Shown piece by piece: positions 33,923-36,255 of a stretch of DNA of 39,738 nt (the stretch's first letter is position 1; the number at the start of each line of letters is the position of its first letter). A program made the translations under genes and the position numbers. The notes beneath the pieces are model-generated. The model saw only the letters and a program-made list of their open reading frames with translations. It searched no databases and had not been told where the DNA came from. The stretch lies in the IMG/VR virus record IMGVR_UViG_2529293069_000032. One strand, given 5' to 3'. The stretch comes from a virus (lineage: Duplodnaviria > Heunggongvirae > Uroviricota > Caudoviricetes).

Positions 33923-34189
33923 ATGACCGACACCACCATGCAATTGCTCAGTCAGGGCACAGACCACGTGAAAGTGCCGGATTTTGATATTCTCGCGGAG
34001 GGTAAAACGCTGTCAGGCGTGGCAGAGCGCCTGATGAGCCTGTCACTGACCGACAACCGGGGATTTGAGGCGGACCAGCTCACCATCACGCTGGATGATG
34101 CAGATGGTCAGTTGCAGCTACCGCCACGGGGCGCGCGCCTGACGGTTCTCATTGGCTGGAAAGGAGAACCGCTGACAGAAAAAGGCACT
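33923..34189 (+). pseudogene. D: Tail protein D, N-terminal fragment (interrupted by IS30)
   Basis: MTDTTMQLL... with SLSLTDNRGFEADQLTITLDDADGQLQLPPRGARL matching the late-control-D N-terminal pattern; frame ends at IS30 terminus. Confidence 0.8.
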
Positions 34190-35410
34190 TGTAGATTCAA
34201 TCTGTCAATGCAACACCCCTTTCAATTATCTCTTTCGGTGTTTTGAACTTCAGTGTCTTTCTCGGTCTGTTGTTTAGCTGAGCAGCAACCAGATCTAGTT
34301 CATGTTGAGTATATTGGGCAAGACATGTCTTTTTAGGAAAGTACTGCCGAATTAGCCCATTTGTGTTCTCATTTGTTCCCCGCTGCCAAGGACTCTGAGG
34401 ATCGCAGAAGTAAACTTTAACGCCGGTGCTGACAGTAAATTCTAGATGTCTGGCCAGTTCCATTCCTCTGTCCCATGTCAGTGATTTTCTGAGTTCTGAC
34501 GGTAAACTCAGGAATTTGTCGGTAAGAGCCTGATTTACTGAGACAGAATCTTTGCCCCTGAGTCTGAGGATGATCGTATAACGTGATTTTCGGTCTACAA
34601 GTGTGGCTATATGAGAGTTTTTTGTACCTGAGACTAAATCGCCCTCCCAATGCCCTAGAGAGCGTCTGTTATCGATATTTCGGGAACGTTCGTGAATTGG
34701 TGTTCCGTTCACTATGTTAATCGTACCTCTTTCGCCTTTGCGGGTATGACGCCTGCCATGGCGAAGGCTATGCGACCGTCGCAGATGCTGTATATTCAGG
34801 TGGTGTAGCGCTTCACGGCTACGAAAGTACAGCGTTTTATAAATTGTCTCAGGTGATATTCGCAGCGTTTTTTGACGTGGTTTTGTTCGCCTTAACCATC
34901 CTGATATTTGCTCTGGAGACCATTTCATCTCCAGCTTTTCCAGAACAAGCTTTCGCAATGGTAAATTTTGATCCAGTAAGCACGGTTTTGGCCTTTTCGC
35001 CATTCTGTTGGCTCGGTTATTAGCATCAACAGCTTTGTAATAGCGTCTGCCCCGATTACGCTGAACTTCACGTGAGATCGTCGAAGGACTGCGATTCAGC
35101 GCAGTAGCTATCGCACGAATGCTCATTTTGGCTGACAAACCAGCTCGTATCTCCTCGCGCTCAGACAGTGTCAGGTGAGCTACAGCCCGCTTACGCTCAT
35201 GGGGTTTTATGCCGCCAGTATCCCTTAACATAGTGAAGATCGTTCCGGGTTTTGAACCCAGGATATTCGCTATTTCACTGAAGCCTGTTCCGTTCTTCCA
35301 TAGTTCAAAAACAGAGGCTTTTTCCTCTGCTGTAAATGTTCGTCTCATTCAAAAAACCTCCGCAACCCCATGTTTTCACATAACTGTTGCGTTGACCAAT
35401 TGAATCTACA
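34190..35410 (-). mobile_element. IS30, complete copy (1221 bp) with 2-bp CT target-site duplication
   Basis: Terminal inverted repeats TGTAGATTCAAT(C/T)TGTCAA(T/C)GCAAC at both ends; CT at 34188-34189 and 35411-35412; one DDE transposase ORF inside. Confidence 0.9.
34197..35348 (-). CDS. IS30-family DDE transposase
   Basis: 383 aa; N-terminal HTH, C-terminal DDE region (WEGDLV ... DRGMEL ... NENTNGLIRQYFPK). Confidence 0.9.
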   Translation of the reverse strand: MRRTFTAEEKASVFELWKNGTGFSEIANILGSKPGTIFTMLRDTGGIKPHERKRAVAHLTLSEREEIRAGLSAKMSIRAIATALNRSPSTISREVQRNRGRRYYKAVDANNRANRMAKRPKPCLLDQNLPLRKLVLEKLEMKWSPEQISGWLRRTKPRQKTLRISPETIYKTLYFRSREALHHLNIQHLRRSHSLRHGRRHTRKGERGTINIVNGTPIHERSRNIDNRRSLGHWEGDLVSGTKNSHIATLVDRKSRYTIILRLRGKDSVSVNQALTDKFLSLPSELRKSLTWDRGMELARHLEFTVSTGVKVYFCDPQSPWQRGTNENTNGLIRQYFPKKTCLAQYTQHELDLVAAQLNNRPRKTLKFKTPKEIIERGVALTD

Positions 35411-36255
35411 CTTACATTGTTGATGAAATCGCTCACGAAGGACCACCGGACAGGCTGACTGTTTCAGCCAGAAGCGCAGATTTTCGGGATGAATTTAACG
35501 TTAAACGTGAGGTGTCCTGGCATGATGTGACCGTTGAGCGCGTGGTATCTGCCATCGCTCATCGGTACGGTCTGAAACCGCAAATCAGCGAAATGCTGAT
35601 GGATATCGAAATCGACCACGCCGACCAGACCGAAGAAAGCGACATGTCCTTCCTTACGCGCATGGCGGAAATGCTGGGCGCAATCACCACGGTAAAAAGC
35701 GGCAATCTGTTATTCATCATGCCAGGTGGTGGCGTGAACGCACAGGGCCAGCCGTTGCCCTCGTTCGCCATTACACGCAGCAGCGGCGATCGCCATCAGT
35801 TCCGTATTGCTGACCGCGAGGCGTATACGGGGGTACGCGCCTACTGGCTTGATCTTAATTACGGGAAAAAGAAAAAAGTCAGCGTGAAACGCCGTAAACC
35901 GCCAAAACCCAAAAAGGAGAAAAACAGCAGCCGTGAAGGTGATTATATGGAAGGCGCGGAAGGCAATGTGTTTGTGTTACGCAAGACTTATCAGAACGAG
36001 CAGGCAGCAAGACGCGCAGCGGCGGCAAAGTGGCAGCAACTACAACGCGGAGCCGCATCATTCTCCATCACGCTGGCGCGTGGACGTGCAGAACTCTATC
36101 CCGAAATGCATGGCACGGTGACAGGCTTCAAAAGTGACATCGACAATCAGGACTGGATTATTGCAAAAGCCGAGCACACCATTGATAACAGCGGCTTTAC
36201 CACGCAGCTTGAGCTTGAGGCAAAAATCCCGGAATGGATAGCGGAAACAGAATGA
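35411..36255 (+). pseudogene. D: Tail protein D, C-terminal fragment (resumes after IS30)
   Basis: In-frame continuation ending at 36255 (track ORF 35512-36255 covers most of it); the two fragments together approximate a full-length D (P2 D about 387 aa). Confidence 0.8.

Follow-up and report, generated by a model that had tools for sequence, protein, structure and literature searches.

IS30 in tail hub gene D of a P88-like Escherichia coli O157 prophage: an insertion ancestral within the clade, at a site hit more than once

In P2, gene D is essential for tail assembly, as established by P2 genetics. Three copies of P2 gpD form the trimeric central hub between the spike gpV and the tube initiator gpU (bioRxiv 10.64898/2026.09.14.750843). 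Phage P88, a Xuanwuvirus, was induced from strain K88 (PMC5285337). Prophage Sp13 of E. coli O157:H7 Sakai, found at the same locus in EDL933, is described as P2-like and defective. Treated with mitomycin C it reportedly excises and replicates, and its packaging is poor (PMC2669165). Replication of Sp13 perhaps proceeds via a P4 epsilon-like derepression gene (PMC2669165), and such a gene is also present at 5600-5830 of the DNA analyzed here. The insertion sequence IS30 enters nearly palindromic hot-spot targets with a 2-bp stagger and transposes by copy-out-paste-in, and its copies are stable when flanked by hot-spot sequence (PMC9333248).

The analyzed DNA, a stretch of 39,738 nucleotides (hereafter the window), is 100% identical to positions 3372851-3412588 of NZ_CP038412.1 from 493/89, a strain of E. 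coli O157 that ferments sorbitol. The prophage is placed between yecA and the tRNA-Leu/Cys/Gly cluster, integrated beside tRNA-Leu (leuZ). It is a P88-like prophage of the genus Xuanwuvirus in the P2 family (Peduoviridae), an assignment that rests on the D region (96-97% nucleotide identity to P88, P884B11 and PhiR44_2), gene-by-gene comparison and gene order. Compared to P88 at least 40 ORFs are full length, including every other ORF for replication, head, packaging, lysis, baseplate and tail, and the structural proteins share 92-100% identity with those of this inducible phage. The P2-type tail gene context (FI, FII, E, E', T, U, V, W, J, I, H and ogr) is likewise complete and full length, which bears out an earlier note on this DNA that had described the remaining gene set as intact; D is the sole broken gene among the phage ORFs of the window in the comparison with P88. 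P88 itself was inducible and has an uninterrupted D, and it differs from the 493/89 element in its integrase, immunity region and cargo and in having an invertible tail-fibre segment. Gene order is shared with P88, including a sheath-tube-E-E'-T-U block (FI-FII-E-E'-T-U) on the minus strand that diverges from D. The FETUD operon of P2 ends with D, whereas here the gene stands alone, divergent from the sheath operon. An IS-linked inversion was considered for this divergence of FI and D and rejected, as P88, P884B11 and PhiR44_2 have the same order. This arrangement, on which the earlier note was silent, is the normal one in Xuanwuvirus.

Gene D and the element within it are laid out in the window as follows.

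33766..33922, no strand: divergent intergenic region between FI (sheath, minus strand) and D (plus strand), from the ORF map; usual P88-like order
33923..34189, plus strand: N-terminal fragment of gene D, 89 codons (267 nt); PGAP pseudogene "phage late control D family protein, missing C-terminus"
33923..34246, plus strand: predicted truncated product of 107 aa, 89 aa of D followed by 18 IS30-encoded residues and a stop; the translation ends in TEKGTCRFNLSMQHPFQLSLSVF
34188..34189, no strand: left CT of the target duplication; a single CT in the P88 empty site
34190..35410, minus strand: complete IS30, 1221 bp, canonical left end at 35410 and transposase on the minus strand
34190..34215, no strand: 26-bp terminal inverted repeat IRR (canonical right end), from the inverted-repeat match
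34197..35348, minus strand: uninterrupted IS30 transposase ORF, 383 aa (Pfam HTH_38 and rve; RefSeq WP_001254932.1)
35385..35410, no strand: 26-bp terminal inverted repeat IRL (canonical left end), from the inverted-repeat match
35411..35412, no strand: right CT of the target duplication, flanking IS30
35413..36255, plus strand: C-terminal fragment of gene D, 280 codons and the stop codon, which ends at 36255 (Pfam Phage_GPD profile positions 64-304)

Between the two 26-bp inverted repeats, 23 of 26 positions agree. The transposase carries an N-terminal helix-turn-helix (HTH_38) and a DDE catalytic domain (rve), and it matches the NCBIfam model transpos_IS30 with an E-value of 3e-82 (276 bits, cut-off 80). 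This IS30 differs by 0-4 nt from copies elsewhere (0 nt from the copy in MEI003), and a known element reproduced at exactly 1221 bp cannot be put down to chance. The ORF and both ends are intact, and about 14 IS30-end matches were found in the 493/89 genome. IS30 duplicates 2 bp of its target, rarely 3 bp. The empty sites in P88 and in the IS-free E. coli isolate 30345_1#186 hold a single CT where the window has one on each side of the element.

When IS30 and one CT are removed, the N-terminal fragment joins position 35413 in frame and an open frame of 1110 nt (369 aa) is restored, 98% identical to gene D of P88. The uninterrupted site in P88 (GACAGAAAAAGGCACTTACATTG) equals the reconstructed junction exactly and is also present in the IS-free isolate. 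Thus the complete 1221-bp IS30 with inverted repeats and a CT duplication, and the break in D after about 89 codons, are both as the earlier note had described them, and the comparison with IS-free alleles that it had proposed agrees with them. Within the C-terminal fragment PGAP places a 266-aa "VgrG/Pvc8 family" CDS starting at 35455. The locus also exposes an annotation artefact, in which the truncated model of D is spreading onto intact genes.

The identity of D as the hub is indicated by several profile and structural matches. The C-terminal fragment matches PF05954 Phage_GPD ("phage tail baseplate hub") with 63.6 bits (cut-off 30.1), and the reconstructed protein matches PHROG 52 ("tail protein") with an E-value of 3e-165. 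Chain C of structure 6u5h, the R2 pyocin baseplate, can be aligned to residues 19-356 of the reconstructed protein (E 5e-41), and homology to P2 gpD and to this R2 pyocin hub extends over almost the full length. The alignment to 6u5h chain C runs uninterrupted across the break point (residue 89/90), and the split therefore falls inside the conserved domain.

The same position of D carries IS30 in ETEC H10407, FMU073332, O114:H49 90-9280, 7_33_46A and several cattle isolates. The IS-bearing prophages have differing D alleles, attachment sites (leuZ or flk/yfcJ) and cargo between D and ogr. With the IS removed, D of the window is 10 nt from an IS-free allele and 23-37 nt from other IS-bearing alleles, and the IS-bearing alleles do not form a clade. 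MEI003 has a sequence-identical 1221-bp IS30 that occupies this CT in reverse orientation and is likewise flanked by a CT duplication, and a second opposite-orientation IS30 with a different flank allele was found in an IMG/VR sequence (L046). Because opposite orientations at the same dinucleotide cannot share one event, the comparison identifies the D site as an IS30 hot spot that has been independently hit at least twice, a point absent from the earlier note.

Other IS30 insertion sites were collected from GTDB and IMG/VR loci, and an empirical weight matrix was built from them without any D site; the half-site consensus of these other targets is about TTAAAAAAGGCN[NN]. By this matrix, a crude one with 4-6 independent training sites, the D target ranks third to fifth of the 38,487 positions in the IS-less window. 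Its left half (AGAAAAAGGCA[CT]) fits the matrix well and its right half is weaker. The half-site at D reads AAAAAGGC. A 24-bp target consensus for IS30 was reportedly given by Olasz et al. in 1998. The D site resembles natural IS30 hot spots such as LHS in phage lambda in having a 2-bp duplication centred in an A-rich to T-rich near-palindrome, in accepting either orientation and in holding copies stably. It differs from them in combining one strong half-site (AGAAAAAGGCA) with a weaker one, and its match is to the empirical matrix only. A strong orientation bias might follow from the asymmetric half-sites.

We lean slightly towards regarding D of P88-like prophages as a sequence-defined hot spot that is hit repeatedly, with two events proven by orientation and at least five likely from the alleles, attachment sites and cargo, and with IS30 as a recurrent, site-directed agent that grounds this genus in E. 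coli. The number of events beyond two is uncertain, as recombination between prophages could mimic independent insertions except in the opposite-orientation cases. A single origin, in which one ancestral D::IS30 allele spread from lineage to lineage and across attachment sites by helper-assisted transfer or recombination and no target preference was involved, would account for the one orientation seen in all but two of the IS-bearing examples, and some strains hold an IS-bearing and an IS-free copy, the latter being a possible helper. We nevertheless judge it unlikely, given the opposite-orientation insertions in MEI003 and L046, the failure of the IS-bearing alleles to form a clade, the fit of the D site to the IS30 target matrix and the documented preference of IS30 for nearly palindromic hot spots (PMC9333248).

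Within O157 the closest described relative is Sp13. The two elements share the leuZ attachment site and about 99.9% identity in the parts that they have in common, and both D/IS30 junctions of Sakai Sp13 are identical to those of 493/89. Sp13 has, however, lost the equivalent of window positions ~10486-26883 (head, lysis, baseplate and fibre genes), with an IS629 copy at the deletion junction, and of ~35492-38813 (most of the D C-terminus, the SEC-C gene, ogr and hok); it also has a 49-bp deletion within IS30 and a pseudogenised tape-measure gene. Compared to Sp13 the 493/89 copy is a near-complete form in which D is the sole visible lesion. Compared to strain LSU61, the window shows 12 SNPs in 38.5 kb. 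The intact appearance of the 493/89 prophage is thus explained by the little mutational time elapsed.

The accessory ORFs of the window, coding for a DUF2511 protein, a membrane protein, a 280-aa protein with a DUF4760 protein, a macro-domain protein, an acetyltransferase, a SEC-C-motif protein and hok, are all uninterrupted. The cargo is therefore intact, as had been claimed, and the domesticated element that was read from it is not supported. Under domestication the host would keep a grounded prophage for beneficial cargo under selection, a view for which the integrity of every cargo ORF speaks, as does the interval between D and ogr, which is a variable cargo slot with defence-like genes in relatives. 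Near-zero divergence accounts for that integrity, however, and is too low for it to signal selection. Sakai lacks the SEC-C protein gene, ogr, hok, the macro-domain gene and the DUF4760 pair, and this loss of most of the cargo from Sp13 argues against selection to keep it. A comparison of the cargo with defence families (PADLOC) gave no convincing match, only marginal ones (the SEC-C motif to E2-like models, the macro domain to DarG with E 0.004, and Csx27 with E 4e-5). Selective retention of the cargo is accordingly improbable in our view.

Taken as a whole, we assign a probability of roughly 0.85 to the explanation that this is a P88-like O157 prophage with D cut by IS30, that it makes no tails, that the insertion is ancestral within O157 and that the site is a recurrent one elsewhere. 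IS30 would have entered between AGAAAAAGGCA and TACATTG, in agreement with its target preference, with duplication of the central CT. The products left to the prophage would be a 107-aa chimeric stub and a 280-codon remainder that starts mid-gene, and because only these are left no hub trimer should form. With the hub absent the spike gpV would not be joined to the tube initiator gpU, and therefore baseplates and tails could not assemble. Loss of D hub function is well supported by the split in the conserved domain, IS30 in D very probably blocks tail assembly, and the prophage is likely to be defective, as the earlier note had supposed. The genes for integration, replication, head, packaging and lysis are still intact, and from homology the prophage is predicted on induction to excise and replicate, to package its DNA and to lyse the host, with the release of tailless, non-infectious heads.

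A prophage that is still infectious, by precise excision of IS30 in a subpopulation or with a hub supplied by another prophage, is quite improbable on the evidence. The remaining genes are all intact, and other prophages can help to package defective ones in O157 (PMC2669165). A second D on the NZ_CP038412.1 chromosome was, however, not found at the DNA level, where megablast and sensitive blastn each gave one place, and the intact D allele that by the earlier note would have refuted a defective prophage was thus not seen; sensitive blastn with full-length D omitted 493/89 because IS30 splits the match, and it was repeated with the C-terminal part of D. Reversion by IS30 excision is unlikely to judge from the copy-out-paste-in mechanism and the stability of copies at hot-spot sequence (PMC9333248). 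LSU61 shows the one loss event observed, and an imprecise one. There the site reads GAAA-CTACA-CTTACATT, or in a longer view GACAGAAA-CTACA-CTTACATTG, in which the 5 nt CTACA come from the very end of IS30 and AAGGCACT, 8 nt of D, has been lost. A deletion of 1224 bp removed almost the entire IS30 with D frameshifted as a result, and this footprint is unique among 5426 genomes. A clean revertant of the O157-type allele was not found among the closest matches listed. LSU61 had been a candidate for a clean empty site and was rejected as such, with 5 nt of the IS30 end present and 8 nt of D absent; P88 and isolate 30345_1#186 were used instead.

The age of the insertion in O157 can be judged from the distribution of its junctions. 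A 140-nt left-junction probe was matched in full in 260 of 5426 complete E. coli genomes, with 100% identity in all 60 of the 260 matches that were listed. Junction carriers include EDL933 and Sakai, in which the element is annotated as "prophage Sp13, P2-like phage" with IS30. In the O157:H7 strains PV15-279 and F3113, IS30, the whole C-terminal part of D and the SEC-C gene downstream are all retained. LSU-61 is basal and diverged ahead of the separation of sorbitol-fermenting O157:NM from non-fermenting O157:H7 (PMC7175801). The shared junction, the LSU61 footprint and the basal place of this strain together indicate that the common ancestor of the O157 clade had IS30 in D before the clade radiated. 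As the insertion is common to every O157 copy compared, it precedes the later deletions. Within O157 the insertion would then have been inherited and followed by further decay, through IS629-associated and other deletions in typical O157:H7, as in Sakai Sp13, and the imprecise 1224-bp deletion in LSU61. The earlier note had drawn a recent entry of IS30 into D from the intactness of the rest of the prophage. Such an entry, strain-specific and shortly before isolation, would agree with the abundance of IS30 in the genome (14 IS30-end matches), yet it is highly unlikely. The same junction occurs in 260 complete genomes, Sakai, EDL933 and PV15-279 among them, basal LSU61 carries the footprint, and the intactness is accounted for by a divergence of 12 SNPs over 38.5 kb.

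A prophage gene disrupted by an IS is an ordinary feature, and this one is present in the annotations of RefSeq and of the Sakai genome already; the understanding of insertion sequences and of prophage decay is unchanged by these results. The additions are modest and consist of the recurrent, sequence-directed inactivation of D by IS30, the LSU61 footprint and the recognition of the 493/89 element as a near-complete, ancestor-like form of the well-studied defective Sp13. If the recurrent reading of the D site is true, D::IS30 would be a homoplasic character and not a clonal marker, and with recurrent hits the D::IS30 junctions are unsafe as markers of descent outside the O157 clade. The D site in turn represents a natural and testable IS30 hot spot.

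In the D gene of LSU61 (NZ_CP038336.1), an O157:H7 strain basal to both O157 branches, IS30 was absent except for its terminal 5 nt (CTACA), and 8 nt of D were missing at the same place.

L003 (the LSU61 locus), approximately 6590-6605, minus strand: the footprint, corresponding to window 34182-35405

This event was an imprecise deletion of 1224 bp that left D frameshifted, and no other genome among 5426 complete genomes carried the footprint. Whole-genome counts of IS30-end matches reached 14 in 493/89 (NZ_CP038412.1), the O157 strain identical to the window, and 12 in LSU61, compared to only 2-3 in typical O157:H7, and IS30 has therefore either expanded in the lineages of 493/89 and LSU61 or been lost from typical O157:H7. 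Across IMG/VR and GTDB loci the element occupied mutually related target sites of the form (G)ANATATTAAAAAA(A/G)GCNNC many times and in both orientations (L017, L024, L028-L030, L033, L036, L037, L039, L042-L044, with further loci of the same family at L049, L052, L054, L056, L058, L061, L063). Some IS30 copies at these targets were flanked by inverted copies of one half-site, which suggests IS-mediated inversions.

The N-terminal D fragment of H10407 contained a 6-bp in-frame duplication (CACGGG; L004, approximately 4430), which was lacking in the otherwise identical allele of 90-9280. In several cattle isolates an IS3-family element interrupted the IS30 within D (SMN152SH1, L007 4498-6959; matches H4-H8). 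At a separate locus these same genomes carried another copy of D that has no IS and could serve as a helper.

In IS-free genomes whose 369-aa D frame is fully open, the PGAP models for the gene consisted only of a 266-aa 'VgrG/Pvc8 family' CDS and a partial 'hypothetical protein' pseudogene.

L013 (NZ_OZ039818.1), 3001-4110: open 369-aa D with a shortened PGAP model, also seen in blastn matches H160-H170

A truncated model originating from IS30-disrupted alleles seems to have been propagated onto intact genes.

Sp13, the defective prophage at the same locus in O157:H7 Sakai (L002), had lost two segments.

Window 10486-26883: missing from Sp13, with an IS629 copy at the deletion junction
Window 35492-38813: missing from Sp13

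The Sakai IS30 measured 1172 bp due to a 49-bp internal deletion. The attL and attR of the prophage are a 123-bp direct repeat (98.4% identical) located at window 39616-39738 and to the left of the window (L001, approximately 1770-1892). This repeat overlaps the 3' part of a tRNA-Leu, and the window ends within the tRNA gene.

Two cargo positions were noted.

Window 25928-26830, plus strand: macro-domain protein gene, 300-aa product (Pfam Macro, E 8e-19; PHROG 2613)
Window 36256-38083: D-ogr interval, a variable cargo slot compared with L004, L008, L012 and L013

The macro-domain gene, which P88 lacks, lies between the tail-fibre gene H, whose stop codon it overlaps, and the fibre-assembly gene, and its product matched DarG only marginally. 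In the window the D-ogr slot encodes a SEC-C-motif 'YecA family' protein; 7_33_46A has HxsABCD there, MEI003 has a GmrSD-type endonuclease, isolate 30345_1#186 has a PIN-domain protein, and in H10407 the slot is empty. The interval resembles the defence-gene hot spots found in phages of the P2 family.
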